Source of the DNA: Gammaproteobacteria bacterium | Lineage (GTDB): Bacteria; Pseudomonadota; Gammaproteobacteria; Ga0077554; Ga007554 | Direction of reading: 5' to 3' | Assembly (NCBI GenBank): GCA_021731145.1 | Contig: JAKFXX010000005.1 | Location: 18,821 to 82,820, forward strand | DNA: 64,000 nucleotides | Part shown: positions 4,079 through 53,412 of the stretch, piece after piece | Layout of the letters: every line of letters begins with the position of its first letter | Numbering within the stretch: position 1 is the first letter of the stretch | The notes under the pieces: model-generated | What the model was told of the DNA's origin: nothing | Databases searched by the model: none | The model's input: only the letters and a program-made list of their open reading frames with translations | Translations under genes and position numbers: made by a program

Positions 4079-4117
4079 GATATATTTTCTCCGAAACAGG
4101 AATTCTGGTATTGTTAA

Positions 4118-4285: not shown

Positions 4286-4304
4286 ATTGACAACCTCTCA
4301 ATAA

Positions 4305-4820: not shown

Positions 4821-4833
4821 AACGAACTCCTTA

Positions 4834-6912: not shown

Positions 6913-6916
6913 TGTT

Positions 6917-7279: not shown

Positions 7280-7324
7280 TTCTATTTCCCCGACCAACAA
7301 GAACTTACCATCTGAAATCCATAA

Positions 7325-7633
7325 TTATTTCAGCCTAAGTGCCTCATCAACTCCAATTAATCGTGCTGACAAACGCAGCTTCTCAGATGGATTATCCCAA
7401 GACACATCTACTCCTTTAAGGGATGCCTCCAAAAAGAATGAATACAGAACCTGCAATATTGCAGTATCTGCCCTCTCAACATTATTAGCTTCAATCATGA
7501 TTGGAGCGTTAATTTCCAATGATTTTTTTAATTTTTTATAGAATTCACTTGCGATTGATATATCCATCACATCTTCGCAGGATATTTTTTCAATCGTTCC
7601 TGATTGGCTTTTAATCATGGATCCCTCCGTCAT
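7325..7633 (-). CDS. STAS-domain protein (anti-sigma-factor-antagonist fold) at the head of the che operon
   Basis: 102 aa. The pattern ...IEANNVERADTAILQVLYSFFLEASLKGVDVSWDNPSEKL is typical of SpoIIAA/STAS proteins. AT-rich like the che genes. Confidence 0.55.
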   Translation of the reverse strand: MTEGSMIKSQSGTIEKISCEDVMDISIASEFYKKLKKSLEINAPIMIEANNVERADTAILQVLYSFFLEASLKGVDVSWDNPSEKLRLSARLIGVDEALRLK

Positions 7634-7695
7634 TTAATATTTAAAATAATTACCTTACAAATCGTTAACATTTATTAAATAATCTTATGCTGTTA

Positions 7696-7722
7696 ATATC
7701 GGCATCCTTGACGGCAACCTTA
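7696..7722 (-). promoter_or_regulatory. putative sigma28 (FliA) promoter for the STAS-cheY-cheA-cheW-...-cheR-cheD operon
   Basis: Minus strand reads cTAAGg-N15-GCCGATAT against consensus TAAA-N15-GCCGATAA. Lies immediately after the fliJ stop. Confidence 0.4.
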
Positions 7723-8166
7723 GCTGTTTTTACTTTTTTCTTTGATCTGACAGGCTCTTTCGTCCTCCGCGCTCTGCTCTCGCCGTGTTGCGGCGCGCAT
7801 ATCGTCCTGATGATACCTTTCAACAATACCGTTTAGTGCCTTAACCCTGCCACGCACCTGATGCCAGATGCGCAACTTGTCTTCAAATTCACGTTGGCCA
7901 TTTTCAACCAGCTTTTCCTGATAGGTGATCGCGGCATTCAAGTTGGCAAGGAATACCCGGTATTCATTCAACTGGATTGCAGAAATTCCGTTTTTCCCCC
8001 ATGTGCTGAAACGCGCCGTGTATTCTTCGCGGTAGGCGTTAAGATCAACGAGCCTGGCCTGCCGTTCCACAAGCATGTGCTTGCTTTCCGCCAACGCTCT
8101 GGCAGCATCACGTTCTCTGGTTTCCGACACCTTAATGACTGGCTTCAGGCGTTGTGATTTGGTCAT
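7720..8166 (-). CDS. fliJ: flagellar export chaperone FliJ
   Basis: Coiled-coil ~148-aa protein directly downstream of fliI. Start set at MTKSQRLKPVIKV. Confidence 0.7.
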   Translation of the reverse strand: MTKSQRLKPVIKVSETRERDAARALAESKHMLVERQARLVDLNAYREEYTARFSTWGKNGISAIQLNEYRVFLANLNAAITYQEKLVENGQREFEDKLRIWHQVRGRVKALNGIVERYHQDDMRAATRREQSAEDERACQIKEKSKNS

Positions 8167-8182
8167 AAGCAATCCAACAGTG

Positions 8183-8217
8183 CAATGTTGGGTCCGCTTC
8201 GCTTGACCCAACCTACA
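8183..8217. repeat. REP-like palindromic element (family A: GTTGGGTCC...GACCCAACCTACA), single hairpin
   Basis: Sequence caatgttgggtccgcttcgcttgacccaacctaca has an 8-bp stem gttgggtc/gacccaac. The same core recurs at ~13339, ~30020-30110 and ~59895-60090. Confidence 0.5.
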
Positions 8218-8238
8218 TTTAGCTACATTTCACTTTAG

Positions 8239-9603
8239 TTACTGCGCCCTTATCAGCATATTCAGCTCATTGATACTCTCTGCCAATGGCACAGGCTGGT
8301 GCATACCCTGATGGAGAAAGTCCAGGAGGCGCGGATGGTAGTCGATAGCCTGATCAATATTGGCGTCATTGCCGCGACTGTAAGCACCTATGGATATCAG
8401 GTCGCGGTTTTGTTGGTATGCGGAATAGAGCTGCTTGAAACGGCGCGCCGAGTTTTGGTGGACCGAGTCTGTAACTTCCGTCATGACACGGCTGATGGAT
8501 GCTTCGATATCAATCGCCGGATAGTGGCCCGCTTCCGCCAACTGGCGGCTTAATACCACATGGCCGTCGAGTATGGCGCGCGCGGCGTCGGCGATGGGGT
8601 CTTGCTGATCATCGCCTTCGGCAAGCACGGTGTAGAATGCCGTGATGGAACCCCCGGTTTCGTCGCTATTCCCGGCACGCTCCACCAGTTGCGGAAGCTT
8701 GGCAAATACTGAGGGCGGATAACCTTTGGTCGCAGGGGGCTCGCCTATCGCGAGCGCAATCTCGCGCTGGGCCTGGGCAAAGCGCGTCAGAGAATCCATC
8801 AACAGCAACACTTGCTTGCCCTGGTCGCGGAAATACTCGGCAATGCTGGTCGCCAGCATTGCACCGTGCAGACGCATCATCGGCGTGTGATCGGCCGGAG
8901 AGGCAACCACCACCGACCGCGCCATGCCCTCGGCGCCGAGGATGTTTTCAATAAATTCCTTCACTTCTCGGCCACGCTCGCCGATCAGTCCGACGACGAT
9001 GACATCGGCATTGGTGAAGCGCGTCATCATGCCCAGCAAGACGCTTTTGCCTACACCACTGCCGGCGAACAGGCCCATGCGCTGGCCGCGCCCCACTGTC
9101 AGCAAGGCGTTTATGGCGCGCACACCGACATCCAGGGGTTCACGTATCGGGCGGCGTGCCAGCGGGTTTAGAGGGCGCCCGGATAGTGGGATGGTTGCCT
9201 CGGTGCGTAACGGACCGCCACCATCCAGTGGCCGGCCGCCACCGTCCAGCACGCGGCCCAGCAATGCGTCGCCCACCGCCACATCATAGGCGCGCCGTAC
9301 CGGGATAACCCGCGAGTTGGGCATCAAACCACGGATTTCCCCGGTGGGCATAAGAAAGGTTTTGTTTCCGGAAAAGCCTACCACTTCGGTTTCCACCCGT
9401 TCGCCGCCCGGGCCTATCACCAGGCAACGCTCGCCTATTGCCGCCTGGCATCCCACTGCCTCCAGCGTCAATCCGACCATGCGGGTCAGTTTTCCTTCCA
9501 CGATGAGCGGCGGTGGTGAGTCAAGACGTGCGCGATGCCATGCTAAACGTTCGCGCCACGCCGCGCCGCGCTGCGCATCAATGACCGGGGTTTTCGTGTC
9601 CAC
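8239..9603 (-). CDS. fliI: flagellum-specific ATP synthase FliI
   Basis: Walker [15 protein letters not shown]1/T3SS ATPase family. Confidence 0.9.
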
Positions 9604-10237
9604 GCGCGCCTCCCAGTATGGATGCGGCGATTGCCGCTATGCGGCTGTCGAGACTGGCGTCAATCTGCGAGGTATCGGTCACAATGCGGCAGCCGCCCCG
9701 CGTCAATACCGGGTCTTCGACAATCCTCCAGATTTTATCGCCTTCCGTCAGTGACAGAGCGGCACGCACCAGTGCTGCATCTTCGGGATGAAGGTGCAGG
9801 TGAATATTGCGTGAAGCCAGCGGCAAACTTGCAACTCCCTCACGCACCACTGCGACAATCTGGCCTGGGTCTGTTTTGATCTCGCGCCGCACAATCTGAC
9901 GCGCGATGGATATGGACAGGGACACCAGTTCCTTTTCAACATCCTCGTCGAGCTGCGCCAATGGCTCGACTAGCGTGCTCAGCAACTGCTCCAGACGTTG
10001 CGCCTGCGCCTGCATTTCCGCCAGTCCTGCGATATGCCCTTTTTCGCGTCCTTGCTGCAATCCCTGGGCATATCCCTCTTCATAGGCTTGTTTCTGGATC
10101 TGTTCGATTTGGTCGGCCGTTGGGAGTGGTTTCACGGGAGCTGGGAGCACGTCCGCTTGCATAAGCGGTGCTTCCCAGCGCTGATAGGCGCTCAGATCAT
10201 CACCCGTGATGATTCTATTGGGAATGATTTTAGACAA
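9578..10237 (-). CDS. fliH: flagellar assembly protein FliH
   Basis: FliH-like sequence in the position between fliG and fliI ([17 protein letters not shown]...). Confidence 0.75.
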
Positions 10238-11240
10238 AATCCTCTCCTTTTCCGCCTAGCGATATTTCTCCTGCCTCGGACATGCGCCGTGCAATGGCGA
10301 GGATCTCTTTCTGTGCGGCCTCTACTTCGCTGAGGCGCGCCGGACCTTTGGCCTCCAGGTCGTCACGCAGCATTTCCGCAGCGCGCTTGGACATATTCTT
10401 GAAAATCTTCTCCTTGAGATCTTCGTCCGCACCTTTCAGTGCCAAAACCAATACCTCGCCCGATATCTCGCGCAATATCGCCTGCATGCCGCGATCATCC
10501 ACTGAAGCCAGATCATCGAACACAAACATCAAATCTTCAATCTTCTGACCAATATCGGCATCGACATCCTTGATGGTTTCCATAATCTTTACTTCACGTG
10601 CGCTGTCTATGAAGTTGAGGATATTCGCTGCTGTTTTGATGCCTCCGACACTGGCCGATTTAACATTGTCGCTATTTCCTGCGAACTGTCTTTCCATGAT
10701 GTCATCCAGTTCACGCAATGCAGATGGCTGAATCCCGTCCAGCGTGGCGATACGCATCAGCAAATCCGACTGCATGCGCTCCGGCATCTGCTTCAGAACC
10801 TCGGCGGACTGATCGCTATCAAGATAGGACAAGACAATGGCAATGATTTGCGGATGCTCCAGGCGAATGATTTCCGCGACTGCGCGCGGATCCATCCATT
10901 TCAGGGCTTCCAGCCCTTTGGTGTTACGGCCGATCAGGATGCGGTCAATCAAACCACTCGCTTTATCCGCACCGAGCGCCTGGTTCAGCACTTTACGAAT
11001 ATAATCTTCCGAGCCTACCCCCAGGGATGTCTGGCCATCCACCGAGGATATCAACTCATCAAGAACCTCCGATACCTGAGCCTTGCTAACATTGCTTAAT
11101 CCCGCCATGGCCTGCCCCAGCTTCTGCACTTCCTTGGGTCCCATATGCTTCAATATTTCAGCGGCGTCCTTCTCGCCCAGGCTCATCAGGAGAATGGCCG
11201 CGCGCTCCGTGCCGGATAACTGTGCATTGTTCTCAGGCAT
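10230..11240 (-). CDS. fliG: flagellar motor switch protein FliG
   Basis: FliG family (ERAAILLMSLGEKDAAEILKHMGPKEV...MFVFDDL). Start set at MPENNAQLSG. Confidence 0.9.
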   Translation of the reverse strand: MPENNAQLSGTERAAILLMSLGEKDAAEILKHMGPKEVQKLGQAMAGLSNVSKAQVSEVLDELISSVDGQTSLGVGSEDYIRKVLNQALGADKASGLIDRILIGRNTKGLEALKWMDPRAVAEIIRLEHPQIIAIVLSYLDSDQSAEVLKQMPERMQSDLLMRIATLDGIQPSALRELDDIMERQFAGNSDNVKSASVGGIKTAANILNFIDSAREVKIMETIKDVDADIGQKIEDLMFVFDDLASVDDRGMQAILREISGEVLVLALKGADEDLKEKIFKNMSKRAAEMLRDDLEAKGPARLSEVEAAQKEILAIARRMSEAGEISLGGKGEDFV

Positions 11241-42619: not shown

Positions 42620-42696
42620 GCCCCGGTAGCTCAGCTGGATAGAGCATCCCCCTCCTAAGGGGAAGGTCACACGTTCAAATCGTGTTCGGGGCACCA
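42620..42696 (+). tRNA. tRNA-Arg (anticodon CCU); its 3' half is the integration site of the downstream element
   Basis: 77 nt with cloverleaf and encoded CCA. Anticodon loop ctCCTaa. The 3' 45 nt (plus 4 nt beyond) are repeated at 49879-49927. Confidence 0.85.
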
Positions 42697-42700
42697 ATAA
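42652..42700 (+). repeat. attL: 49-nt direct repeat (tRNA-Arg 3' end)
   Basis: ctcctaaggggaaggtcacacgttcaaatcgtgttcggggcaccaataa, compared with the 49879-49927 copy: 45/49 identical, with mismatches compensatory in the T-stem. Confidence 0.8.
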
Positions 42701-42825: not shown

Positions 42826-43104
42826 TCAATGCTGCTCATCGCCATGCCGCCTGATGACGAATTTGAACTCGCTGGGGGTATCATCTTCCCCGACGATGGT
42901 TTGGATCGGGGTCGGCTTGCCGTCCAACCGGTCGGCAATCTCCCTGATCGCGGCCAGGTCGCCCTCTCCGGCCCGCATGACCAAGGCACGGGCGATGCGC
43001 TCCAGAGCGCCCTTGTCACGCGCCAAGACCTTATGCAGGGCGTCGCGGAACATTGAGCCTTTCTTCGCGTTGCTATTGCCCTTTTGCCCGCCTTTCCTAA
43101 CCAT
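42826..43104 (-). CDS. hypothetical phage-associated protein (92 aa)
   Basis: Basic N-terminus (GGQKGNSNAKKG) then ALHKVLARDKGALERIARALVMRAGEGDLAAIREIADRLDGKP. Resembles small conserved phage proteins of unknown function. Confidence 0.35.
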   Translation of the reverse strand: MVRKGGQKGNSNAKKGSMFRDALHKVLARDKGALERIARALVMRAGEGDLAAIREIADRLDGKPTPIQTIVGEDDTPSEFKFVIRRHGDEQH

Positions 43105-43149: not shown

Positions 43150-43632
43150 TCAAGCGCCGGGCAGTTCCGCCGCCGCCCGCCCGGTGAAGTAGTCCCGCGC
43201 ATCCGCATCTTGCTGGCACTGGCCCAACACGTCGTCGATGATCTCTTGATCGGCCTCACCGATATGTGCCAGCCATGCCCGGATTGCTTGATCTTCGTCG
43301 GCGGTCATGGCGTCGGTCGGTTGCCGCCGGATCGGCTCGAAGGGTTCAGCCGCTACCGCGTCCGGGTGCCAGGCCAGAATGTCGGCATGGGTCGCCTCGG
43401 GGCAGCAGGTCAGTTCCACAGGGTCGCGCTCTGGGTAATGAATCAGCCAGCAGCGGGAAGCGGTCGCCGTATCGCCAGCGCCGACATTCACCACGTCATT
43501 GATTATTTGTGACGTAACAGCCGTAACAGGCGTACAAGCCTGTACTGGTGCAGGTTCCGGTGTTACGTCATCCAATGTGGCAGGCGTAACAGCCCGGCCT
43601 TTCAACCTCACCAGCAGCGCATCAAGCCCCAT
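43150..43632 (-). CDS. hypothetical protein (161 aa) downstream of the primase; the track ORF 43150-44031 is trimmed
   Basis: Start set at MGLDALLVRLKG. The upstream 133 codons of the track ORF overlap the primase gene in another frame and are R/S/C-rich. Contains the V-T-P repeats that come from the iteron cluster. Confidence 0.4.
   Translation of the reverse strand: MGLDALLVRLKGRAVTPATLDDVTPEPAPVQACTPVTAVTSQIINDVVNVGAGDTATASRCWLIHYPERDPVELTCCPEATHADILAWHPDAVAAEPFEPIRRQPTDAMTADEDQAIRAWLAHIGEADQEIIDDVLGQCQQDADARDYFTGRAAAELPGA
43511..43591. repeat. iteron cluster 1: about five TGTTACG/CGTAACA heptamers at the 3' end of the primase gene
   Basis: Sequence gacgtaaca gccgtaaca ggcgtacaa ... gtgttacgtc ... 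ggcgtaaca. Confidence 0.45.
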
Positions 43633-46165
43633 GGTCGCCACCCAGCTTGTCAGCAATGATCTGGTACAACCGCACCAGGCGCCCACCAATGCGTTGCGCT
43701 TTGGCACGTTCGCCGCTGGTTGCTGGTAGCGCGCCGACTTCCTGCAAGATATCCAGCGCCCGCTTGAAGTCGAAGCCCTTGACGGCCTCGCGCAGCCCTT
43801 CGGCGTTGAACAGATAGACGCGCGCGAGGCCGTCATCACGCCACCAGCCTGCCCGATTGATACGCATGGCGTCCGCTGTCTCGTAGGCATCGGCACTGGA
43901 GAATCGGCTATCCCCATGAAGCGAAATAAACCCGGCAACCTGCTCCAATATCTGCCGCCGCTCATCGTTACCGCGTCCGCGTGTGGATCGCCACGCCTTA
44001 AAGCCCACCACTGCCGCTTCGATTGCCGCACCCTCCGGCCAGCCGGTTATGCCGTATTCAGTCGCCACCTCACCCGCCAGCGCCACCAAGGCGAAACGTG
44101 CCGCCCCTCGTTTGTCCTGCCCCTCGCCACCTTCGGCGGATAACTCCGGCAATGACTTGATCAGCTCCAGACGTTCGGCAAAGTTGCGTTTATCGCGGGT
44201 CAGCTTTTCGAGGAATGCCCGCCCAGCGTGTCCGTGGTTCGTTGCCGCTGCTTTCTTGATCGCATCGGAAAACGCCGCACCATCCTTGAAACCGTGCAAG
44301 TTATCCAGTACGCCAAAGCCCCGCACCGCCGGAATATCCAGCAGCCGCACCGACTGCCCAGCCTTAGCCCGGTGTCCTGCTTCTGCCATCGTGGTTGCTA
44401 TTGTGCGCTCGCCATTCGACAAGACAGCACAGCGCCAGCGGGTCACTGCCCGCGCATTGCCGGTGCGGCTTGCCCTCTGTTTGCCAGTGCCATTGCCCAG
44501 TGCGTAGACGATAGTACCTATTTCCTTGGGTTCGGCTTCGCTGGTGTCATCCAAGGCCAGCAGGCAATCACTGAACAGTGCCGCCACGCCCTCCATGCCG
44601 TTTGCTGTTGCTCGCCAGCTTCGGCGGAAATTCGGCCCGCCCCAGGTTGAACAGCCTGCGTCGGCTATCGTACTCTTGCCGATAGACGACTCACCGACAA
44701 AGTGAAGTCCGCCGCTCTCGGCGTTGCATAGCTTGAGCATTGGCCCCGCGAATGATACCGACATACCCAGTACCATCATGGGATTGCCAACAGCCCGTGC
44801 CGCTATATTAGCCTGCCACCCGGCCAACGTGCCGCCCTTGGTGTGTTCGTCATGTCCGCGCTCGCCACTCTGGAAGATCACGTCCGAAGCCTTCGGCCCG
44901 ATTACCGCATCCGGCAGCACAAACGAATCACCGCACCATCCCACTTGCAGCGCACAACGAATACGCCGTTTCGGTGGTATGGCTTGCAGGTAATGCCCCA
45001 GCAATGTCCGCCCGGCGTGTGGGTCAATCTCTACACCCATCGCCAGCAGCTCGCCGCGCAGTTCATCGCCCGCACCGCGCAAAAGTTCCATCGGCATAGC
45101 CCATTCGCGCCACTTGCCGACGGTGGTTTTAAATCGCAGCAGCCGCCCAAAATTATTATCCTGTCCGTCAAAAGTCACAGCCTCAACATGCACGGGTGAG
45201 CATACCCATTGTTGAGTAAGCGCGGGTGGTTCTTCACCTTTGCCGTGCTTGACCGTGAAAGACCATACCCCCGGTTTCAACTCGGCACCACCGGGCAGCT
45301 TCTGCCAATCGTCAAACACTTTGAAGCATGGCCGTTTGCTTTCGTCGGGGATAATTGGCTCAGGTGTTACGCCTGTTACGCCATCCGTTTCATCAGACGT
45401 AACAACAGAAAGCCCGCCGTTATTGGGCTGTACGTCTGTTACGCCTGTTACGTCATTTTTTATCAATGCCGCATCGTGTACCGGTGTTGCCGTGTCCACC
45501 ACGTCCGGGCTTGCGGCGTTTTCTTCGTCGGCTTGATGCTCTGACCTTGCCGATGTTTGCGCGGCCTGTAGAGCTTCTACGGTCGGCAGTGCGGCTATAT
45601 CCGCCATCGTTGCGCCGGGGTTCGCCTTCAACCAGTCCACAGCGTCGCCCTTGGAAGGAAGGTTCAAGGCATCCACGTCGATGATGCGCACCGTGCAGCC
45701 CATTGCCAACAGGATGGAAGCCACCGCATCGGCATAACGCCGCCCGGCGCCATCATTGTCCGGCCAGATCGTCACGGTTCGCCCGGCCATGATTGACCAG
45801 TCGGCTTTTTCTGCCGAATCCGCCGCGCCGCTGGTGGTGGCCAGCGCTCCGGCCTTCGGCAGCGCATCGGCGCACCATTCGCCTTCTACTACGATCACCG
45901 TATCATCGGGCCGGGTTGCCAGATCATGCAGGCGGTACAGCGGCTTGCCGTCTGGGTATTCCGGTTCGCCCAGTGTGTAACCTGCACCATTCAGCTTCAT
46001 GGGACGAATCCATTTTTCACCAGTGGTGGGATGTTTCAGGCGGATGCGCCAGTGCAGCGTGGTGCCGTCGCGGTCGGTGTATTCGTGCAGGGCTTGTGGC
46101 TTGCAACCTTTACTGATCGCTCCATCCGCCAGACGCCGCGCGGCTTGTTGGGGTGTCTCACTCAT
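43622..46165 (-). CDS. primase-helicase (Toprim domain + P4-family/D5-type C-terminal NTPase), alpha-like replication protein
   Basis: Toprim motifs IVVEGEWCADAL and IWPDNDGAGRRYA. C-terminal Walker A GESSIGKSTIA. Start set at MSETPQQAARRL, an ATGA overlap with the upstream zinc-finger ORF. Track ORF extends to 46267. Confidence 0.8.
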   Translation of the reverse strand: MSETPQQAARRLADGAISKGCKPQALHEYTDRDGTTLHWRIRLKHPTTGEKWIRPMKLNGAGYTLGEPEYPDGKPLYRLHDLATRPDDTVIVVEGEWCADALPKAGALATTSGAADSAEKADWSIMAGRTVTIWPDNDGAGRRYADAVASILLAMGCTVRIIDVDALNLPSKGDAVDWLKANPGATMADIAALPTVEALQAAQTSARSEHQADEENAASPDVVDTATPVHDAALIKNDVTGVTDVQPNNGGLSVVTSDETDGVTGVTPEPIIPDESKRPCFKVFDDWQKLPGGAELKPGVWSFTVKHGKGEEPPALTQQWVCSPVHVEAVTFDGQDNNFGRLLRFKTTVGKWREWAMPMELLRGAGDELRGELLAMGVEIDPHAGRTLLGHYLQAIPPKRRIRCALQVGWCGDSFVLPDAVIGPKASDVIFQSGERGHDEHTKGGTLAGWQANIAARAVGNPMMVLGMSVSFAGPMLKLCNAESGGLHFVGESSIGKSTIADAGCSTWGGPNFRRSWRATANGMEGVAALFSDCLLALDDTSEAEPKEIGTIVYALGNGTGKQRASRTGNARAVTRWRCAVLSNGERTIATTMAEAGHRAKAGQSVRLLDIPAVRGFGVLDNLHGFKDGAAFSDAIKKAAATNHGHAGRAFLEKLTRDKRNFAERLELIKSLPELSAEGGEGQDKRGAARFALVALAGEVATEYGITGWPEGAAIEAAVVGFKAWRSTRGRGNDERRQILEQVAGFISLHGDSRFSSADAYETADAMRINRAGWWRDDGLARVYLFNAEGLREAVKGFDFKRALDILQEVGALPATSGERAKAQRIGGRLVRLYQIIADKLGGDHGA
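45363..45455. repeat. iteron cluster 2: about six TGTTACG(C/T)C heptamers inside the primase coding region
   Basis: Sequence ggtgttacgc ctgttacgc ... gacgtaaca ... ctgtacgtc tgttacgc ctgttacgtc. Translated as ...GVTPVTP...DVTT...TSVTPVTS... in the primase. Confidence 0.5.
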
Positions 46166-46479
46166 GGTGTGACCTCCCACGCTCCCAACGCCTTGGCGGC
46201 GCCGATGAAACGCAGCCCATGACGCAGCATGTGAAATGCCAGCACATCGCCCCCATGCGCACCGCATACCATGCAGCGAAAACCGCCGGTGTCCAGTCGA
46301 ACGCGCAGGCTGGGTTGGGTGTCGTTATGAAAGGGACAAAGAGCATTTCTCCATTCGCCGCCGCCGATCAGCTTCAAGCCCTGTTCGTGGTAATACTCGG
46401 CGGGGATGGGCAGAAGGTTGCGCTTGAATCCAAAGGGTTTGCGGGTGTGTTGTCCCCGCGTGGGGTTCGCGTAGCTCAT
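46162..46479 (-). CDS. CHC2-type zinc-finger domain of DNA primase, encoded as a separate ORF
   Basis: CPFHNDTQPSLRVRLDTGGFRCMVCGAHGGDVLAF is a zf-CHC2 motif. Its stop overlaps the start of the Toprim-helicase ORF as ATGA. Confidence 0.6.
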   Translation of the reverse strand: MSYANPTRGQHTRKPFGFKRNLLPIPAEYYHEQGLKLIGGGEWRNALCPFHNDTQPSLRVRLDTGGFRCMVCGAHGGDVLAFHMLRHGLRFIGAAKALGAWEVTP

Positions 46480-46491: not shown

Positions 46492-46707
46492 TTATTGAGA
46501 TTGAGACAGCAGCGCACGGATTTCAGCAACAGGCCAAGCCAGACGGCCATTTATGCGAATGGGGCGGATGGGGCCATTCTCAAGGCACGCATATGCACGC
46601 ATTGTTTGTGGTTTGCGTAGCAGATGGAAAGCGGCGCACGCAGTTTCCACGTGGCTGCGCGTTTCCATTTCAATCGGTGGGAAAGTGTGAACGGTTGCGG
46701 TTAGCAT
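46492..46707 (-). CDS. alpA: AlpA-family phage transcriptional regulator / excisionase-like protein
   Basis: Start set at MLTATVHTF. C-terminal region PIRPIRINGRLAWPVAEIRALL resembles the AlpA HTH (..GRAVAWRESEV..W.). Confidence 0.55.
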   Translation of the reverse strand: MLTATVHTFPPIEMETRSHVETACAAFHLLRKPQTMRAYACLENGPIRPIRINGRLAWPVAEIRALLSQSQ

Positions 46708-46827
46708 TTTGTAATCCTCGTTTATGTTGATGAGGATTACTACTTTAACCATGCGTTAAAAGTTTTAAAGAGACTGATTAGGCTTGGCTGAAACCCGCGC
46801 CGCTATTGGGCTATAGGGTGGTTTTGT

Positions 46828-46862
46828 GTTAAAACTTTCGCTGAAAGTATGAAAGTTTTAAC
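46828..46862. promoter_or_regulatory. 12-bp perfect inverted repeat (GTTAAAACTTTC-N11-GAAAGTTTTAAC) over the stop codon of ORF 46858-47445, with a third half-site ~70 nt away
   Basis: Arms gttaaaactttc / gaaagttttaac. A further aaaagttttaaag lies at ~46750 in the alpA promoter region. Not followed by a T-tract, so more likely an operator than a terminator. Confidence 0.35.
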
Positions 46863-47445
46863 TCAGAACTACGTTGGCAAACGCTTTCAATATCGTTTCA
46901 CTACCAAAGTTTTTTCTATTGCCACGCTTTTTAACGCCAGCATTACTTAGCGACTGGACAACTTTATCAGCCAATATATTCCGCTTCGTAAGCAAGGTTG
47001 TATCGTCCCTGATAAGTTGACGCGCAAAGTGACGGGCCGGGGTGTACCAAGGTTGTTCTGGCGCGGGGTCGTTGGGGTCTACGATTTCCCATGGTTTCGG
47101 TGCTACGGCCTGTATCACTGGCACGGCTTCAACCTTCCCGGTAGTGGATTTGGTGACGGTTGAAAGAGTGTTGCCTGGGTGGACATCAGTGCCCGCCGTG
47201 ACTCCATGCAATTCGCATAATTCTCGTGAAATGAAATAGCCATTTTTGATAGCCCATTCAATCGCAGTACCCGCCGGGAACCATAGACCCAATTCATCCT
47301 GTATCACCAGCTCAAGGGTTCTCCCATCTGAGACTTCATTACCTGAGCCACTGATAACTGTTAGCAGTGTCGTTGGCCTCCATATTGTCTCTTGGCCAAG
47401 CCACAGTGAAGCGGATTTTAGAGCTGTAATCATATTCACATCCAT
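46858..47445 (-). CDS. hypothetical protein (195 aa), no recognisable domain; sits between the TA pair and alpA in the satellite hotspot position
   Basis: MDVNMITALKSASLWLGQETIWRP...GYFISRELCELHGVTAGTDVHPGNT...PEQPWYTPARHFARQLIRDDTTLLTKRNILADKVV... No signal peptide. Confidence 0.5.
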   Translation of the reverse strand: MDVNMITALKSASLWLGQETIWRPTTLLTVISGSGNEVSDGRTLELVIQDELGLWFPAGTAIEWAIKNGYFISRELCELHGVTAGTDVHPGNTLSTVTKSTTGKVEAVPVIQAVAPKPWEIVDPNDPAPEQPWYTPARHFARQLIRDDTTLLTKRNILADKVVQSLSNAGVKKRGNRKNFGSETILKAFANVVLS

Positions 47446-47501
47446 TTAAAATAGAGACCCCATTACGCCAGTGAGGGCGTCCGGCGTTTCCCCCGCCCAA
47501 G

Positions 47502-47954
47502 TCAGGCGGCCATCCGCCACCCCTTGGCGGTTTCCTGGAATATTTGCTTGGCCCCTTCTTCCAGTTTTTCCAGGCGGTCTATGTCGTTCCATTGGGCAAT
47601 CATTTTCGCCACCTTGGTTTCGCCGTCCGCATGTTCCAGGTAAAGCAGGCGCAGCATCCTTTCGGCGGCCACTGTTGGGCGGCGTTTGCTTCGTTCCCAT
47701 AGGGAAATGGTTTGCTCGTCAACGCCCAGGCAGTCGGCCAGTCGTTTTTGCGACATGCCCATTTCTACCCGAAGAAAGCGGATTTCCGCGCCAGACAATC
47801 GCTCGCGGTAATTTACCAAATGGTGCGCGATGGAACGATGCAGCCCGTTTATGTCGTCTATCTCCAGGCACTTGCCATGCCCTTCGATTTCCTCATATTG
47901 GTAGCCATTTTTCAGCCAGATATTCCGCAGCCCACAGTCGTCATATTTCAGCAT
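47502..47954 (-). CDS. MqsA/HigA-2-like antitoxin (degenerate N-terminal zinc-finger region + XRE-family HTH)
   Basis: HTH region GMSQKRLADCLGVDEQTISLWERSKRRPTVAAERMLRLL. Only two of the usual four Cys are present in the N-terminal domain. Follows the toxin after a 4-nt gap. Confidence 0.6.
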   Translation of the reverse strand: MLKYDDCGLRNIWLKNGYQYEEIEGHGKCLEIDDINGLHRSIAHHLVNYRERLSGAEIRFLRVEMGMSQKRLADCLGVDEQTISLWERSKRRPTVAAERMLRLLYLEHADGETKVAKMIAQWNDIDRLEKLEEGAKQIFQETAKGWRMAA

Positions 47955-47958
47955 TTCT

Positions 47959-48282
47959 TCATTCCTCGAATACCGTTGCGATGATTACCCATTCGCCATT
48001 TTCATGCAGCTTGAATACCGCTCCCACAGTAACGCGCAGCCCCGCATGTTGCCAACGGATGTTACAGCGCCAATCCGCTTTAATATCCTGGTGAAGCGGC
48101 TCGCTGATGGTTCCATGCTCCAAGGTTTCCAACACCTGTCTACGCCCAATTTTACGTTGGCGCATTCGCAGTTCGGCATGTGCGGAAAAGAGCAGGCGCC
48201 GTTTTCCCTGGGCAGCCTCCTTGAGCCATTGTTTAGCCAGTTTTTCGCTTGGCTTGTAGGGCTTAATGTTTTTCATTAACAT
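47959..48282 (-). CDS. DUF4258-like small toxin (107 aa)
   Basis: SAHAELRMRQRKIGRRQVLETLEHG...WRCNIRWQHAGLRVTVGAVFKLHENGEWVIIATVFEE matches the DUF4258 toxin pattern. It is upstream of the HTH antitoxin, the toxin-first order seen in mqsRA. Confidence 0.5.
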   Translation of the reverse strand: MLMKNIKPYKPSEKLAKQWLKEAAQGKRRLLFSAHAELRMRQRKIGRRQVLETLEHGTISEPLHQDIKADWRCNIRWQHAGLRVTVGAVFKLHENGEWVIIATVFEE

Positions 48283-48318
48283 ACATTGTATGGGTATATC
48301 GGGAAGATTTCAAGGGTA

Positions 48319-49704
48319 TTATTTTGTCACCACCCGCAACCCTGCTTGCACTGGCACAAACCCGATTCCGGCCTGCTCCAATATCCACGCTTCAATCTTG
48401 ACGTGCCACAGGTGCAGCAAGTCGAGTTCACGCTGTATGTAGTGCTTTTCTGCAATGGCGCTTGGCTTGTGCCCCATGATTTGCGCAACGATTCCAGTGG
48501 GGACTTCCACCCACTCAGACAAGGTGCCAAAGGAACGGCGCAAACCATGCAGGGACAGCGCGGGAAGTGCAGCAGCATTCAATGCCTTGACGTGTTGAAT
48601 GCGCGGTTCCTCTATCCTTCCCGATGCGGCGGTGGGGCTTGAGAATACATATTCATTGCGGCGCGGCAGTGCGGATATTAAATGCTCCAGGTAGGGTGTC
48701 AGCGGAATGGTGCGCTCGCCTTCCACTTTGTCGCGGATGGTTAAACTTTTCCACTGAAAGCCAACATCGCACCAACACAGCGTGGCCAGTTCGTTGCGGC
48801 GTGCGCCTGTCAATAACAGGCCTTGCAGATAGGCAGCAATTACCGGGTTCCCAATCTTTCGCACCGCTTCAAACCATGGCTTGATTTGCGCACGTCTCAG
48901 GCTGTCATTTTTCTTGATTTGTGGTGAAGGAACCTTCTTTCTCACGTCATCAGACTGGCACGCATCAGCGTGAACGGCGGCGCGGTAGCTGTCTTGCTTG
49001 GCGCACCATGTAAGGAAGGCACGCAAAAAGCGGAAGGCTTTGGCGGCAGAGGTCGGGGCTTGTTTGATTTCCTTGGCTAACCATGCCGCAATGGCCTTTG
49101 CGTCCAAGTCAATTAGGCGCATTGTCATCAGTGGCACCAACATGCCGGGGCGTGTTTTTTTAGATTCGCCGGGGCGGCTTCCACGTTTGCGCTTTACCCC
49201 ACCGGCTTGAACAAAATAAGCGTGGTGCGCTTTATGTCTTTCGCCCCATTCAGGCTTACCGTCAACGATAGAGGCGCTACGCTCTGCAATATAGGCTTGC
49301 CATGCTTCGGCCACGGTCACGGATTCGCGCGCCTCCTGCACCACCAGCGCGGCGGCTTGCGCCTCCTTGGCTAACTTCGCAGCTTTCTTGCTGGCTTCAT
49401 TCTCTGCTACCACTTGGCGCGGGTCATTGCCTTGGTCTATCAAGACTTGAAGGCGGCGGGCTTCGGTTTGGGCGGCATCAATACTCCATGCCTTCACCTT
49501 GCCAATCGTAACGCGCATTGTTTGCCCGTTTACCTTGGCTTGGAAAATGTAACGCTTGCGGGCCAGTGGGTCGCTATCTTTCGCGCCACCTGTCGCACGC
49601 ACCCCCAGCCCCGGCACTTCGGCACACCATAGGAAGGCTTGGGATTTACCTTCATCGCACTTAAAGCCTGCAATCCGTCCGGCTGTTAGTTTGACCTTTG
49701 CCAT
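48319..49704 (-). CDS. int: P4-type tyrosine integrase
   Basis: 461 aa. N-terminal DUF4102-like arm-binding region. Catalytic region ends HGLRRSFGT...GHKPSAIAEKHYIQ (R...HxxR...Y). Adjacent to attR. Confidence 0.85.
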   Translation of the reverse strand: MAKVKLTAGRIAGFKCDEGKSQAFLWCAEVPGLGVRATGGAKDSDPLARKRYIFQAKVNGQTMRVTIGKVKAWSIDAAQTEARRLQVLIDQGNDPRQVVAENEASKKAAKLAKEAQAAALVVQEARESVTVAEAWQAYIAERSASIVDGKPEWGERHKAHHAYFVQAGGVKRKRGSRPGESKKTRPGMLVPLMTMRLIDLDAKAIAAWLAKEIKQAPTSAAKAFRFLRAFLTWCAKQDSYRAAVHADACQSDDVRKKVPSPQIKKNDSLRRAQIKPWFEAVRKIGNPVIAAYLQGLLLTGARRNELATLCWCDVGFQWKSLTIRDKVEGERTIPLTPYLEHLISALPRRNEYVFSSPTAASGRIEEPRIQHVKALNAAALPALSLHGLRRSFGTLSEWVEVPTGIVAQIMGHKPSAIAEKHYIQRELDLLHLWHVKIEAWILEQAGIGFVPVQAGLRVVTK

Positions 49705-49878: not shown

Positions 49879-49927
49879 CTCCTAAGGGGAAGGTCGTACG
49901 TTCAAATCGTATCCGGGGCACCAATAA
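49879..49927 (+). repeat. attR: 49-nt direct repeat of the tRNA-Arg 3' end; overlaps the last 8 codons and stop of the hydrogenase protease gene
   Basis: ctcctaaggggaaggtcgtacgttcaaatcgtatccggggcaccaataa. Positions 49902-49927 encode ...IIGAPDTI* on the minus strand. Confidence 0.8.
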
Positions 49928-50387
49928 TCGGCAAAAGTTCTTCTTTGATCCGCTCCACCAACATGGGCAACGCCCCGGCAGTTTCGGGCGTTAAAGTGTC
50001 GCATGGCTCAAGGTTGCACGCCTCCACGCCGTAGAGCACCAGTCTCGCTGGCAGCATCCCCAGCGTTCCACCCAGCGCCAGGCTTTCGGCCACACCAAAA
50101 CCATGGCTGGAGAGCAACGCCGCCTCCATCTCGATCTCTTCATCCTGCAAGCGGCGGATTGTGCCGGGCACGGCGCCGCTGCGCATGGCATCAATGAGAA
50201 TGACGTGGGCGGCGCCCTCCATGAGCATGAGCAATCCGCTGGCCGGCCGGTCACAGGTTTGCACACTCACCAGACCTTGCGGAAAACGCCCCAGCAACCC
50301 CGATCCGCGGATAGCCTCGACCGCCTCCCAACCAAGCTGATCGTCACCGAAGGGCGAACCGATGCCGATGATGCGGATCGGCGTCAT
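49902..50387 (-). CDS. NiFe-hydrogenase maturation endopeptidase (HoxW/HycI/HybD family)
   Basis: 161 aa. IRIIGIGSPFGDDQLGWEA...VILIDAM is the hydrogenase protease signature. ATGA-type overlap with the large-subunit gene. Confidence 0.8.
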   Translation of the reverse strand: MTPIRIIGIGSPFGDDQLGWEAVEAIRGSGLLGRFPQGLVSVQTCDRPASGLLMLMEGAAHVILIDAMRSGAVPGTIRRLQDEEIEMEAALLSSHGFGVAESLALGGTLGMLPARLVLYGVEACNLEPCDTLTPETAGALPMLVERIKEELLPIIGAPDTI

Positions 50388-51682
50388 GGGCGGCTTACGG
50401 CAAGCTTTAGAAAATGCGTAGCGCAGGAAATGCAGGGGTCGTAGTTTCTGATCACCGTCTCGGCGCGGCGGCGCAGCTCTTCATCGCTGCTGGCAAGCCC
50501 GAAAGCATCCAGTGACCGGCGCAGATCCTCTTCGATGCGCGCCTGATTCTGGCTGGTGGGCGGCACGATGCGTGCGCTTGTGATCAGACCCTGCTCGTCG
50601 GTTTCATAGCGGTGCCAGAGTATGCCGCGCGGCGCCTCGGTGCAACCATACCCAACACCCGCGCGCGGCACTACGGGAACATAAGGTGCAAATGGATATT
50701 CATAGCCTTCCAGCAATCGCACTGCCTCGCTCAGGGCATAGTAAACCTCGATGGCGCGCGCCACAATGCTGTGGAACATGTTGCTACTGGGGAAGGCAAT
50801 GCCCGTCGCCTGTACAGCGCGCGTCACCTGTTCCGGAAGTTTGTCCAGATTGAGATTGAGGCGTGCCAGCGGCCCCACCAGATAAGGCTGGTCATGCAAC
50901 AAGCTGTGCAACGCAGTGGAATGCGGCACCTGGAATTCGCGGAAGTGATGCTGGTATTCGGCAACCGGAATATCCAGACCAGCGCTTGAGACGATGCGGC
51001 CTTCGTTCATGGGGTATTCATCGGTGTGGCGCAGGGCGACGCTGGTAAAGGTCTGGTCGTCCCGAGGCAGGTTCAGCGAGGCCGTCCAGGCGACTAGCGC
51101 CTCGGCATCGGGCAAGGCGCAGCGTAGTTTTTCCAGTAGCGCACTCACGTCTTGCTGATCCGGCGCACGGTAAAATCCGCCGACGCGCACGCCCACTGGA
51201 TGCACCGAGCGCCCGCCGAACAGCCGGATAATGGCGTTGCCCAACCCTTGCAGGCGCAGGCCACGGCGCACCTCATCAGGATAATCGCGCGCCATGGCGA
51301 TGGCGTTGTCATAGCCCAGAAAATCCGGCGCGGCCAACAGGTGAATATGCAGGCTGTGGCTTTCCATCCACTCGCCACAATACAACACCCGGCGCATGGC
51401 GCGTACCCAAGAACCGGGCTGCGCACCGAAAATGCCCTCCAGGGCATGCACCGCGCTCATCTGGTAGGCCACCGGGCAGATGCCGCAAATGCGCGCCACC
51501 ATGTCCGGCACTTCATTGTAATCGCGCCCTTCCAGAAACTTCTCGAACAGACGCGGCGGTTCGTAGATACGCAGCTTCAGGTCGGCGATGTGACCGTCGC
51601 GGATGGCGATGTCGAGCGCGCCCTCGCCTTCTACACGCGCCAGCACCGGCACATGGATGTTGATTTCACGGTTTTCCGCCAT
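50384..51682 (-). CDS. NiFe hydrogenase large (alpha) subunit, cytoplasmic group 3 type
   Basis: N-terminal RICGICPVAY and C-terminal DPCISCATH nickel-binding motifs. Start set at MAENREINIHVPVLARVEGEG. The track ORF begins at 51733. Confidence 0.85.
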   Translation of the reverse strand: MAENREINIHVPVLARVEGEGALDIAIRDGHIADLKLRIYEPPRLFEKFLEGRDYNEVPDMVARICGICPVAYQMSAVHALEGIFGAQPGSWVRAMRRVLYCGEWMESHSLHIHLLAAPDFLGYDNAIAMARDYPDEVRRGLRLQGLGNAIIRLFGGRSVHPVGVRVGGFYRAPDQQDVSALLEKLRCALPDAEALVAWTASLNLPRDDQTFTSVALRHTDEYPMNEGRIVSSAGLDIPVAEYQHHFREFQVPHSTALHSLLHDQPYLVGPLARLNLNLDKLPEQVTRAVQATGIAFPSSNMFHSIVARAIEVYYALSEAVRLLEGYEYPFAPYVPVVPRAGVGYGCTEAPRGILWHRYETDEQGLITSARIVPPTSQNQARIEEDLRRSLDAFGLASSDEELRRRAETVIRNYDPCISCATHFLKLAVSRP

Positions 51683-52460
51683 GCGCCTCTCCCTTGGCGC
51701 GCAACCCTGCTTCATGGAAGGCGGGTGCGGCATTATTGATAAACAGGAAGCGCCTGGCGATATCGTCCGGCGCTAACCCCAGCCCCTCCAGGCGCCGCGC
51801 AATGCCTAACGTGTTGGGGTTCTCGGCAGGGCCGTAACAGGCATAGCAATCCCGCCCGAAAGCCGGACACAACGCACCGCAGCCGGTACGCGTCACCGGC
51901 CCCATACAGGGGATGCCCTTGGCAACCATCACGCACACGGTTTGGTTACGTTTGCATTCCATGCACACTTTATCCTGCTCCTCCACTGGCACCACACCGA
52001 AGAGCAATGCCCGCAACGCGCCCAGCACCTGACGGCTGCTGACCGGACAGCCCCACAGCTCCAGATCGACCTTGATGTGGCTGGCGATGGACGTCACCGT
52101 GGCCAGGCTGTGGATATATTCAGGCTGGGCGTATACCGCAGCGATCCATTTGCCACCATCCGCCAGATTACGCAGCGCCTGTACGCCACCCGCAGTTGCA
52201 CAGGCTCCCAAAGTCACCACAAAACGGCTATTCGCACGCACCTGTTGGATACGCGCTACCTCGTCAGGCGTAGAGATACTGCCTTCCACGAAAGCGATAT
52301 CCACTTTGGCGTGCGGTTCTACCGGACCCGCTTCGGCAAAATGCACGAAATCGACCCGCTCCGCCACGCGCAGCAGATCCTCGCCGAGATTCAAAAACGC
52401 GAGCTGGCATCCATCGCAGGAGCTGAATTTGTGAACTGCAACCTTGGGTTTCCCGCTCAT
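51666..52460 (-). CDS. NiFe hydrogenase small (delta) subunit
   Basis: Cys pattern of the NuoB-like small subunit (SCDGCQ...GACATAGG...WGCP...CMEC...GCGALCP). Confidence 0.8.
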   Translation of the reverse strand: MSGKPKVAVHKFSSCDGCQLAFLNLGEDLLRVAERVDFVHFAEAGPVEPHAKVDIAFVEGSISTPDEVARIQQVRANSRFVVTLGACATAGGVQALRNLADGGKWIAAVYAQPEYIHSLATVTSIASHIKVDLELWGCPVSSRQVLGALRALLFGVVPVEEQDKVCMECKRNQTVCVMVAKGIPCMGPVTRTGCGALCPAFGRDCYACYGPAENPNTLGIARRLEGLGLAPDDIARRFLFINNAAPAFHEAGLRAKGEAHGGKP

Positions 52461-52461
52461 C

Positions 52462-53412
52462 TCAAAAGCCTCTTACACCCAGCAGTTCTTTAATCTGGGA
52501 ATAGGCAAACACCGGCCCCTGTCGACAGATAAAACTCGTGCCAAACATGCAATGCCCGCATTGGCCGATGGCGCATTGCATGTTGCGTTCCATGCTTAGA
52601 TAGATGCTGTCCTCAGCAAGTCCACGCTCCGTCAGGTTACGCACCGCCGCGCGCATCATGCCTTCCGGCCCGCACATCATCGCCACGGTGCGCTCCGGCA
52701 TAATCTCCATTTGATCGAATACCTCCGTCACCAAACCGACATGCCACGGCCAAAGCGGACCGCCATGATCGGCAGCGAGCAGCACTTGGGTATCGGGCAG
52801 GGTATTCCAATAGGCATAACGTTCACGCCAGATCAGCTCCTCGGCATGCTTTACTCCCTGAATCACCGTGAGCCTGCCAAACCGCTCGCGGCGCATGATG
52901 ATGTAATTGATCACAGCCACCACCGGCGCGCAACCCAAACCACCCGTGACGACCACAATGTCCTTACCCTCTGCCTCCGCCGTGCAGGGATGCACAAGTG
53001 CTGGTCGCTTCCAGCATCCTGCTTCTGGCGACACTTGTGCATCCCTGCACGGCGCAGGAGGCACGATGCCAGGAGCGGCCGCCAGCGGCCAACCGCGCCC
53101 ATACGGCCCACGCAGACCCAGCCGCTCACCCACATTGAGGCGGGAAAGCCCCTCCGTCACCCGCCCCACGGCACGGATGGTGTGCCCGAGCAGGTTTGTA
53201 TCCTGCGGATCGGACGCAATCGAAATCGGTATTTCGCCTACCCCGTACAGATACACCATGTTGAATTGACCCGGCGCAAAGCGATAAGCCTTGCGTGCTT
53301 CATCGTCAACAAGGCGCAGGCGCAAAGTAAAAATCGTGGGCGACTCCTGGATGCGCTCAACGACTTCCGCCTCCCAGGGCAAATGAGGATTCATGTTGCC
53401 ACCCCGCTGCAA
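52462..53412 (-). CDS. hydrogenase gamma subunit (FAD/NAD(P)-binding oxidoreductase with C-terminal 2Fe-2S motif)
   Basis: FNR-like fold (RFAPGQFNMV...GPYG...VTGGLGCAPV) and C-terminal CAIGQCGHCMFG. Contains a ~24-codon insertion encoded by a perfect palindrome. Confidence 0.75.
   Translation of the reverse strand: MQRGGNMNPHLPWEAEVVERIQESPTIFTLRLRLVDDEARKAYRFAPGQFNMVYLYGVGEIPISIASDPQDTNLLGHTIRAVGRVTEGLSRLNVGERLGLRGPYGRGWPLAAAPGIVPPAPCRDAQVSPEAGCWKRPALVHPCTAEAEGKDIVVVTGGLGCAPVVAVINYIIMRRERFGRLTVIQGVKHAEELIWRERYAYWNTLPDTQVLLAADHGGPLWPWHVGLVTEVFDQMEIMPERTVAMMCGPEGMMRAAVRNLTERGLAEDSIYLSMERNMQCAIGQCGHCMFGTSFICRQGPVFAYSQIKELLGVRGF
52978..53054. repeat. perfect 23-bp inverted repeat with 31-nt spacer, embedded in-frame in the gamma-subunit gene
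   Basis: Left arm ccgccgtgcagggatgcacaagtg, right arm cacttgtgcatccctgcacggcg (RC-identical). Encodes PCRDAQV-SPEAGCWKRP-ALVHPCT between the conserved GPYG and VTGGLG motifs. Confidence 0.6.

Follow-up and report, generated by a model that had tools for sequence, protein, structure and literature searches.

The DNA analysed here (the window) is a stretch of 64,000 nucleotides from an assembly of a gammaproteobacterium (GCA_021731145.1, contig JAKFXX010000005.1, positions 18,821 to 82,820). It contains an island of ~7.2 kb that is integrated at a tRNA-Arg gene and flanked by a 49-nt direct repeat, as found by a repeat search, ARAGORN and Rfam. The genes of the island lie on the minus strand in the order int, toxin, antitoxin, a gene for a 195-residue protein that we call X, an alpA-like gene, CHC2/primase and two small open reading frames (ORFs). 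A preliminary description of this DNA had taken the toxin, antitoxin and X genes together as candidate anti-phage cargo, possibly a single abortive-infection or defence module, in the hotspot of a P4-like satellite. The three ORFs are where it had placed them, all on the minus strand; it is the relationship between them that we see differently. The comparison set consisted of ~90 related islands of Beta- and Gammaproteobacteria, which are small int/alpA/primase elements from freshwater and wastewater members of these classes. It separates an exchangeable toxin–antitoxin cassette from X, which, judged by its neighbourhood, belongs to the island backbone and goes with the alpA promoter region instead of being cargo. 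What the comparison defines is a family of islands in which six RNase toxin–antitoxin families cycle through one fixed position, together with a new protein family in which a DNA-binding-like domain is combined with extreme N-terminal modularity.

The toxin–antitoxin cassette and its slot

The first gene after int (47959..48282, minus strand) encodes a toxin of the DUF4258 family with a predicted MqsR-like RelE/BECR fold, 105 residues long from its probable start at 48276. The preliminary description had recognized a small toxin-like ORF here, with a start at 48282. The protein scores 34.4 bits against Pfam DUF4258 (PF14076; gathering cutoff 25), the match covering model positions 1–70 of 71, and it also matches phrog_5393 in PHROGs. 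It bears the motif HAxxRMxxR as HAELRMRQR, and residues H35, R43, R47, R48, E61, H64 and D66 are invariant within its subfamily. An AlphaFold model built on 22 homologues, with a mean predicted local distance difference test (pLDDT) score of 87.8, predicts an α/β fold of the RelE/BECR type. The likeness to MqsR is one of structure only, at 9% identity, and Pfam assigns the toxin to DUF4258, not to MqsR (PF15723). DUF4258 is catalogued as a BECR/RelE-superfamily toxin with no characterized member, and 17 DUF4258–MqsA fusions are on record (PMC11980606); a 2026 preprint groups it, as Ntox49, with the colicin-like BECR RNases (bioRxiv 10.64898/2026.08.28.747851).

The second gene follows after a gap of 4 nt, in the toxin-first order that had been noted before, and encodes an MqsA-like XRE helix-turn-helix (HTH) antitoxin of 150 residues (47502..47954, minus strand). 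It is recognized by Pfam HTH_3, by phrog_5119 from end to end (E 6e-34) and, in part, by TIGR03830. It has two cysteines only (C7 and C29) and no CxxC, from which it follows that the zinc site has gone; the degenerate zinc finger of the preliminary description was thus correctly seen. As in MqsR/MqsA of E. coli, the toxin comes first, the antitoxin has an N-terminal toxin-binding domain and a C-terminal XRE-HTH domain, and the promoter carries a palindrome. The window pair differs in that its toxin is DUF4258 (PF14076), and in that its antitoxin is without both CxxC motifs and falls below the MqsA cutoffs. With the DUF4258 (Ntox49-like) BECR family it shares a score above the Pfam gathering threshold, an MqsA-type partner, and occurrence in phage and on plasmids; the review tabulates that family as antitoxin-first (PMC11980606), whereas the window cassette and its relatives are toxin-first.

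A sigma-70 promoter precedes the pair (48280..48313, minus strand), with the −35 element TTGAAA at 48308–48313, the −10 element TACAAT at 48285–48290 and a spacer of 17 (10 of 12 matches in a promoter scan). The palindrome CATACAATGTATG lies over the −10 (48280–48292, minus strand) and is a candidate autoregulatory operator. Promoter, palindrome and the 8-nt distance from TACAAT to ATG are all kept in six of six homologous cassettes. The first ATG of the toxin ORF falls within the −10/operator palindrome. The constancy of the 8 nt between the −10 and the next ATG points to a leaderless transcript that begins at the third codon, and this codon, at 48276, is most likely the true start, giving the 105 residues that are the length of most homologues. 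In other cassette families found in the slot, a −10-like hexamer lies ~6–9 nt before the ATG, with no Shine–Dalgarno sequence and often with a palindrome (e.g. GTTAATTAAC); toxin upstream regions of this leaderless type were seen in L004, L007, L018, L021, L023, L033, L015, L020, L008 and L032. It may be that all cassettes of the slot are expressed from leaderless mRNAs.

The adjacent HTH antitoxin gene, the 4-nt gap, the conserved promoter with its palindrome and the recurrence of the pair together make up a type II arrangement. A Pseudoalteromonas plasmid carries the same toxin-first pair at ~40% identity, as does Acinetobacter phage PhabP_R1, where it is flanked by tail genes; the pair is thus a self-contained, mobile two-gene module. 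Taken alone, the cassette is an ordinary, newly recognized representative of a known but experimentally uncharacterized family. Its job is most likely addiction, which would stabilize an element able to excise; a part in abortive infection or phage defence is possible, if unsupported.

In every locus with enough sequence, int is followed by zero to two small gene pairs, then by X, the alpA-like gene, another small gene and the primase gene. Across the ~90 islands, the stretch from int to X is either empty or occupied by toxin-first type II cassettes, which belong to six families. The cassette is DUF4258/MqsA-like in this window, L001 and L035; HI1419-like/HI1420 in L004, L009, L077 and L093; HigB/HigA in L007, L018, L021, L023, L078 and L092, with a HigB remnant in L014; HicA/HicB in L008 and L081; BrnT/BrnA in L015; and Gp49/XRE in L020. 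The slot is empty in L019, L046, L057, L060, L063 and L070. The preliminary description had proposed an exchangeable cargo slot after int, and there is indeed such a slot, but X, which had been counted among its contents, is part of the backbone outside it. The closest DUF4258 homologues follow int in L028–L032, islands without the X domain (an hmmsearch with the X C-terminal domain gave no match in L028–L032), and Accumulibacter islands that lack this domain have the pair; L032 has two cassettes in tandem, BrnTA and then DUF4258/MqsA-like.

Some islands carry parts of cassettes. An orphan HigA-like antitoxin gene stands after the DUF4258/MqsA-like pair in L028, L030 and L031 (6769–7056 in L028) and in L034 (2360–2698), and a 47-residue C-terminal piece of HigB is all that remains in L014 (1972–2115). 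The orphan genes and the remnant appear to be signs of cassette turnover.

Since X occurs with six toxin–antitoxin families or with none, and since the pair occurs elsewhere without X, the pair is to be seen as exchangeable cargo and X as separate from it. We therefore regard it as most improbable that toxin, antitoxin and X form one three-component abortive-infection or defence system, e.g. a toxin–antitoxin–chaperone (TAC) system similar to MqsRAC. It is true that the three genes lie side by side in one direction with little space between them, that the MqsR–MqsA–chaperone three-gene system protects E. coli from phage T2 (PMC9519451), and that the HTH of the antitoxin is followed by 45 further residues which could, in principle, be a chaperone-addiction segment. 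MqsRAC and CmdTAC also consist of three adjacent genes, of which the first two encode an MqsR-like toxin and its MqsA-like antitoxin; their third gene, however, encodes a SecB-like chaperone that is needed for neutralization (PMC9519451), whereas X does not resemble SecB and occurs independently of the pair. X has no Pfam match, and its model is helical with a winged-helix-like part. The toxin–antitoxin families that accompany X-family genes are unrelated to one another, and the pair that lacks X in a phage, on a plasmid and in other islands has an antitoxin of the same length. The TAC reading was rejected because X is not SecB-like and is independent of the toxin–antitoxin type. No PADLOC system model matches the trio either: with PADLOC-DB v2, toxin and X gave no match, the antitoxin matched a generic HTH only, and the other island proteins matched primase-domain models only, so that, of the checks which had been proposed for a defence system, the one with PADLOC yielded none. 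It should be noted, as a caution, that the neighbour of a toxin–antitoxin pair in an 'island hotspot' is not to be presumed a defence component.

Protein X and the repeats at its stop codon

X is encoded at 46858..47445 on the minus strand and has 195 residues, or 191 if it starts at 47433. It consists of a helical N-terminal region (residues 1–80), which is rare, a disordered linker and a C-terminal winged-helix-like domain (~112–195; coding part 46858–47112, minus strand). The model of the C-terminal domain is confident and bears a weak resemblance to winged-helix/HTH domains. The absence of a recognizable domain, remarked on in the preliminary description, extends to Pfam, PHROGs, PADLOC, NCBIfam and PDB sequences, where X has no match, including a search of its profile against PDB, and no Pfam domain was found in 41 members of the X family. 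A tblastn search with X found nothing in GenBank phages or PLSDB plasmids, a scan of IMG/VR likewise, and Foldseek against viral structures (BFVD) gave no match with E < 1.

What members of the family have in common is their last 80 residues, which show ten invariant columns and the consensus KPWxIxDPxDPxPxQPWYTPARYFARQL...TLLTKR..LAxKVVQSL.NAGIxKRGGKKPF..GTVLKAF.NV.LG. This domain sits C-terminally without exception, in proteins of 106–424 residues. Homologues are rare in isolates, with 21 among ~186,000 species representatives, all of them Beta- or Gammaproteobacteria (Methylobacter, Nitrosomonas, Polaromonas and Rhodoferax among them). Metagenomes contributed 61 further loci, and the domain forms 580 clusters at 50% identity in metagenomes. 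What precedes the domain is extremely diverse: 167 representatives fall into 67 N-terminal groups that are mutually unrelated by BLAST. The X family is thus an undescribed modular protein family, for which there is no Pfam or PHROG model.

The N-terminal region of the window X (residues 1–105) is a near-orphan, with four known carriers (P0001, P0002, P0003 and P0010). A search with the N-terminal 106 residues gave P0002 and P0003, and P0001 and P0010 came from an earlier homologue search. It is joined to three different C-terminal domains, one in the window and P0002, one in P0003 and one in P0010. When the X profile was aligned with the alternative C-terminal domains by hhalign, a weak match of 19 columns was obtained, with the motif GRGGK...TI (E 0.003, probability 10%). 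A matching of X N-terminal type to toxin–antitoxin or primase type was ruled out: four HigBA loci have unrelated N-terminal regions, and the window N-terminal region occurs with HigBA and DUF3987 in L033. X stands directly upstream of a conserved intergenic region and alpA for every primase type, be it DUF927, PriCT_2+AAA_25, Prim-Pol+VapE/DUF5906 or DUF3987.

It is at this intergenic region that the repeats are found. As had been noticed from the first, the stop codon of X is buried in a perfect 12-bp inverted repeat, GTTAAAACTTTC/GAAAGTTTTAAC (46828–46839 and 46851–46862), with the TAA in the right arm; the repeat extends to 22-nt arms with 86% complementarity. Its two halves belong to an array (46828..46862, minus strand) made up of R1 (46851–46862), R2 (ATACTTTC, 46843–46850) and an inverted R3 (46828–46839), which are putative sites for the C-terminal domain of X. 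The third half-site that the preliminary description placed in the alpA promoter, which we call site 3 (TTTAAAACTTTTAAC, 46755–46769), does overlap the putative −35 hexamer of alpA. Three of the eight matches to AAACTYTY in the 64-kb window fall within 100 bp at the X stop and the alpA promoter.

The spacer between the X stop and alpA (~130 nt) is conserved as DNA across the family, in which the proteins are only 45–65% identical. In the direction of transcription, the family pattern is the stop codon, AAAACTCTC (R1), AAACTTTC (R2), 3 nt, GAAAGTTTT (R3, inverted), ~45 nt and R4; after R4 (CAAACTTTC) there are 8 nt, then CTTGCAAGCGTTTAACGC with TTGCAA as the −35, ~17 nt and an A/T-rich −10. The R4/promoter consensus, CAAACTTTC-N8-CTTGCAAGCGTTTAACGC, was derived by aligning 21 intergenic regions. 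The motif AAACTYTC occurs in most of 88 loci at offsets of +2, +10, +21 (inverted) and +74 from the stop. In a set of 72 non-redundant loci (504 kb), 176 of the 218 strict motif matches lie within 95 nt after the X stop, a density of 25.7/kb as against 0.085/kb elsewhere, or an enrichment of ~300-fold; no second motif cluster was found anywhere in this set. That the repeats are arm-type or att-proximal sites was ruled out, there being no copy near attL or attR and one cluster per locus.

The inverted repeat might alternatively act in RNA, as an intrinsic terminator or hairpin that ends the int–toxin–antitoxin–X transcript with no protein bound. The RNA does fold as a 12-bp hairpin (−16.8 kcal/mol for an 81-nt region, z −3.1), UUUU(A)AC follows the hairpin, and L011 and L016 show joint changes in R2 and R3. 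However, A and U predominate in the stem, a U-tract of normal length is missing, and a terminator scan makes no call. The sequence itself, beyond its pairing, is kept across the 72 loci, and the additional copies of the same sequence (R1, and R4 74 nt downstream) would be superfluous for a hairpin. Moreover, the islands with other types of C-terminal domain have three to six direct repeats, for which a terminator has no need. This explanation appears very unlikely to us.

Further evidence comes from natural exchanges at the X position. Where a different C-terminal domain is present there, different repeats occur in the same place, beginning no more than ~12 nt from the stop, so that six types of C-terminal domain pair with six repeat motifs. 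In addition to the AAACTYTC type of the window, these are TTGCCCC / GGCATT in L034, where the protein at the X position is P0003; ACCCCAC, in three to four copies, in L033, where it is P0010; TTCCTG, in four direct copies and one inverted, in L028 (a protein of 207 residues); CCGGAAAA, in four direct copies and two inverted, in L029 (477 residues); and TACCGCC / ATACCGG in L032 (342 residues). The clearest case is L034. It shares with the window the promoter box and the type of cassette, its N-terminal region is 72% and its AlpA 87% identical to those of the window, and yet it differs in the C-terminal domain and in the repeats. The repeats track the C-terminal domain of X, and not AlpA, Int, the toxin–antitoxin cassette or the primase. 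Such co-variation is what would be expected for a sequence-specific DNA-binding module and its cognate sites, and in this way the natural swaps tie the C-terminal domain to the repeats at the alpA promoter.

A possible switch for the alpA–primase operon

The alpA-like gene (46492..46707, minus strand) is the first of the alpA–primase operon and encodes a protein of 71 residues of the excisionase/MerR winged-helix type. The gene, already named alpA in the preliminary description, is conserved in the sister loci. No Pfam, NCBIfam or PHROG model detects the protein, and its profile match to the excisionase/MerR-type structure 6ama is marginal (E 0.059). The putative promoter region (46742..46790, minus strand) comprises the −35 TTTAAA (46764–46769), the −10 TAAAGT (46742–46747), site 3, and a degenerate R4 (46776–46790).

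The reading that we favour, with modest confidence, is that of an autonomous toxin–antitoxin cassette beside a backbone regulator, X, that acts on the alpA–primase operon; from its position and its repeats, X is probably the regulator that switches this operon. The cassette would look after itself, the antitoxin or the toxin–antitoxin complex binding the palindrome over the cassette −10. X would be made together with int or the cassette, with which it is co-directional at short gaps. Its C-terminal domain would recognize the AAACTYTC repeats R1, R2 and inverted R3 at its own stop codon, and X would also be bound beside or over the alpA −35, at R4 or, in the window, at site 3. Once bound to the array, X could control both read-through and initiation at the alpA promoter, be it as a repressor or roadblock or as an activator, and control of this promoter would constitute the switch for an early operon of excision and replication. 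The interchangeable N-terminal module would receive the signal, for example a helper-phage protein. The extreme diversity of the N-terminal modules suggests that the partner is probably variable, as a helper-phage protein would be, and the fixed spacing of 8 nt between R4 and the −35 argues for control of transcription.

The logic proposed here, and that alone, is shared with Stl of the SaPIs/PICIs, in which a DNA-binding module with diverse partner modules, encoded next to int, controls the operon for excision and replication. Stl is divergent from its target operon and has an N-terminal HTH, whereas X lies in tandem with alpA (both on the minus strand, and in tandem in all sister loci), has an undescribed C-terminal domain, and has its sites from its own stop codon onwards.

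Several observations weigh against a switch of this kind, or against parts of the picture. X is co-directional with alpA, unlike the divergent repressors of the Stl type. R4 is degenerate in the window, where a related site overlaps the −35 instead, and a strict consensus promoter scan misses the putative alpA promoter, which rests on the alignment. It is possible that the co-variation reflects the exchange of gene end and spacer as one recombination block; this argument is weakened by the fact that every version has direct repeats and an inverted copy, which a block leaves unexplained. As for the cassette, the antitoxin is below the curated cutoffs for membership of MqsA, with 50.2 bits against TIGR03830 (cutoff 61.8; model positions 41–116) and 16.8 against PF15731 (cutoff 30). 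The island is no more than a candidate satellite. In this respect L032 (ena:ERZ25039499 contig_5336, 3848–10980) is a difficulty: its int is 74% and its toxin–antitoxin pair 89–90% identical to those of the window, and a Mob_Pre relaxase and a DUF5681 protein replace the primase. The presence of a relaxase and the lack of a primase in L032 imply that a front end of int, toxin–antitoxin, X position and alpA is common to replicative islands and a mobilizable element. Finally, it is by its position that X is a counterpart of the iolg gene of PICMI elements (see below).

The repeats could instead be the iterons of an origin, with X as an origin-binding replication initiator whose N-terminal region recruits the cognate primase-helicase. 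Direct repeats with one inverted copy beside the gene of the binding protein are the classic layout of an iteron replicon (textbook knowledge), an AT-rich stretch follows the repeats in L034, and the repeats co-vary with X. We nevertheless think an initiator unlikely. The same N-terminal region (66–72% identity) occurs with a DUF927 primase in the window and with DUF3987 in L033, and four unrelated primase types are found alongside one and the same C-terminal domain with its repeats. L032, with a relaxase and no primase, has a positional analogue of X with repeats of its own. A separate pair of iteron clusters is present at the primase gene, as in P4 ori/crr, and the fixed place of R4, 8 nt from the −35, points to transcription.

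Somewhat less likely still is an accessory role in excision or packaging, in which X would work with Int and AlpA in the manner of IOLG, or would serve as a TerS-like adaptor that marks the DNA of the island through its DNA-binding domain and docks on a helper-phage protein through its variable N-terminus. It would be in keeping with this that iolg of PICMI occupies the same position and is needed for excision and transfer (PMC10803314), that pac sites are often in or beside the gene of the protein that recognizes them (again textbook knowledge), and that a hypervariable partner-binding module would suit helper specificity. Against it, 3 kb separate the single repeat cluster from each att site, and neither attL nor attR has copies nearby; nor did X show a terminase-like or recombination-directionality fold, and packaging of the island is itself hypothetical.

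A hairpin, GTAATCCTC...GAGGATTAC, lies in the 5′ untranslated region (UTR) of alpA and covers the ribosome-binding site (46711..46740, minus strand; −17 kcal/mol, z −6.0). Hairpins of quite different sequence are retained at the equivalent position in sister islands, e.g. GTGAACCT/AGGTTCAC and TTGGGAAGCTCC/GGAGTTTTCCAA, as was seen in L008, L015, L018, L020, L036, L059, L065, L089 and L092. In 15 of 22 unique alpA UTRs, at least six of ten bases of the Shine–Dalgarno region are paired. This suggests that alpA is under translational control by way of the 5′ UTR hairpin.

Relation to minimal satellites and the remainder of the island

The closest described architecture to that of the window island is the PICMI type of minimal island, in which the order is int, iolg, alpA, up1, prim and up2 (PMC10803314). 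There, iolg is needed for induction, excision and transfer, and its 13 families have no known function; alpA–up1–prim form an early regulon that is turned on by the helper phage by an unknown mechanism; and a defence hotspot is situated between prim and fis, at the other end of the element (PMC10803314). The window island is similarly small (7.2 kb, compared with ~6 kb) and has int, a variable gene, alpA, a small gene, primase and one or two accessory genes. In both, alpA heads the early operon, and in both the gene between int and alpA is diverse: PICMI has 13 families of it, and the present islands have at least 67 N-terminal and several C-terminal types. The differences are that the window island is at tRNA-Arg and not at fis, has a DUF927 primase and not DUF3987 or DUF5906, has an AlpA that neither PF05930 nor PF12728 recognizes, and has a slot for toxin–antitoxin cassettes after int. 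Thus the island would fall outside PICMI as defined, with int present, alpA undetected by Pfam, a DUF927 primase and the tRNA-Arg site. Sister islands carry primases of the PICMI types, DUF3987 in L033 and DUF5906 in L004.

A wider and distinctly more tentative proposal can be made, namely that the int–alpA gene of PICMI-type minimal islands is the missing switch, a two-module regulator with a C-terminal domain that reads iterons at its own stop codon and at the alpA promoter and with an N-terminal module that senses a specific helper-phage product, and that the adjacent slot is a dedicated docking site for toxin-first RNase cassettes. If true, this would explain how helper infection starts the alpA–primase early regulon, a question that was left open for PICMI, and it would provide a large natural library of phage-sensing domains on a common DNA-binding output. 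Both the role of the variable gene next to int and the helper-phage trigger of the early operon in minimal satellites (PICMI) are now testable.

The preliminary description had looked to P4-like satellites, and to a defence hotspot between int and the alpA/primase module. The documented P4 hotspot is int–psu, beside cos, and P4-like elements are limited to Enterobacterales (PMC9122126, PMC8628076). There are points of likeness to P4: an integrase, an AlpA-like protein and a primase-helicase in a small tRNA-integrated element, two iteron clusters at the primase gene, and variable cargo beside int, with gop-beta of P4 being toxin–antitoxin-like. In the window, however, int and primase are on the same att side, with the cargo between int and alpA. 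Searches with Pfam and PHROGs found no match to psu, delta, sid or epsilon among the nine ORFs of the island, and 7.2 kb leaves no room for them. The assignment to a P4-like hotspot therefore does not hold.

The borders of the island are the tRNA-Arg(CCT) gene with the left copy of the 49-nt repeat (42620..42700, plus strand, the repeat being 42652–42700; ARAGORN, Rfam and direct repeat) and, on the right, a copy that is 92% identical and represents the displaced 3′ end of the tRNA (49879..49927, plus strand). An Rfam search of the island gave nothing beyond two tRNAs. The tyrosine integrase (48319..49704, minus strand; 461 residues; Phage_integrase and Arm-DNA-bind_3) forms the conserved left flank of the cargo slot. 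The integrases upstream of the slot in sister loci are 42–79% identical to it, the nearest (79%) being that of the Methylobacter metagenome-assembled genome L018. Judged by this integrase and by the hydrogenase genes beside the island, the host is probably a methanotroph of the Gammaproteobacteria; a look-up of the identical protein gave short metagenome contigs only.

The replication module (43622..46479, minus strand) consists of a CHC2 zinc-ribbon protein (46162–46479) and a Toprim/DUF927 primase-helicase (43622–46267). Two clusters of the 9-mer GRCGTAACA, mutually inverted and 1.85 kb apart, are candidate replication iterons and hold nine of the 20 matches in the window. One is directly 3′ of the primase gene (43511..43591), and the other, inverted, is within that gene (45365..45454), in a linker encoding DVTGVT repeats. 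Their layout resembles P4 ori/crr, and the clusters are a candidate replication origin.

The last two ORFs of the island are small (43150–43632 and 42826–43104, minus strand). The second of these, of 92 residues, has a weak match to DUF5681 (E 0.006, below the cutoff), and L032 has a clear DUF5681 protein at the equivalent end. Beyond the right border, the host genes at 49902–53412 (minus strand), as read from their ORF translations only, are a hydrogenase maturation protease-like ORF, the large and small subunits of a [NiFe] hydrogenase and an oxidoreductase; the right repeat of the island overlaps the 3′ end of the flanking host ORF (49902–50387).

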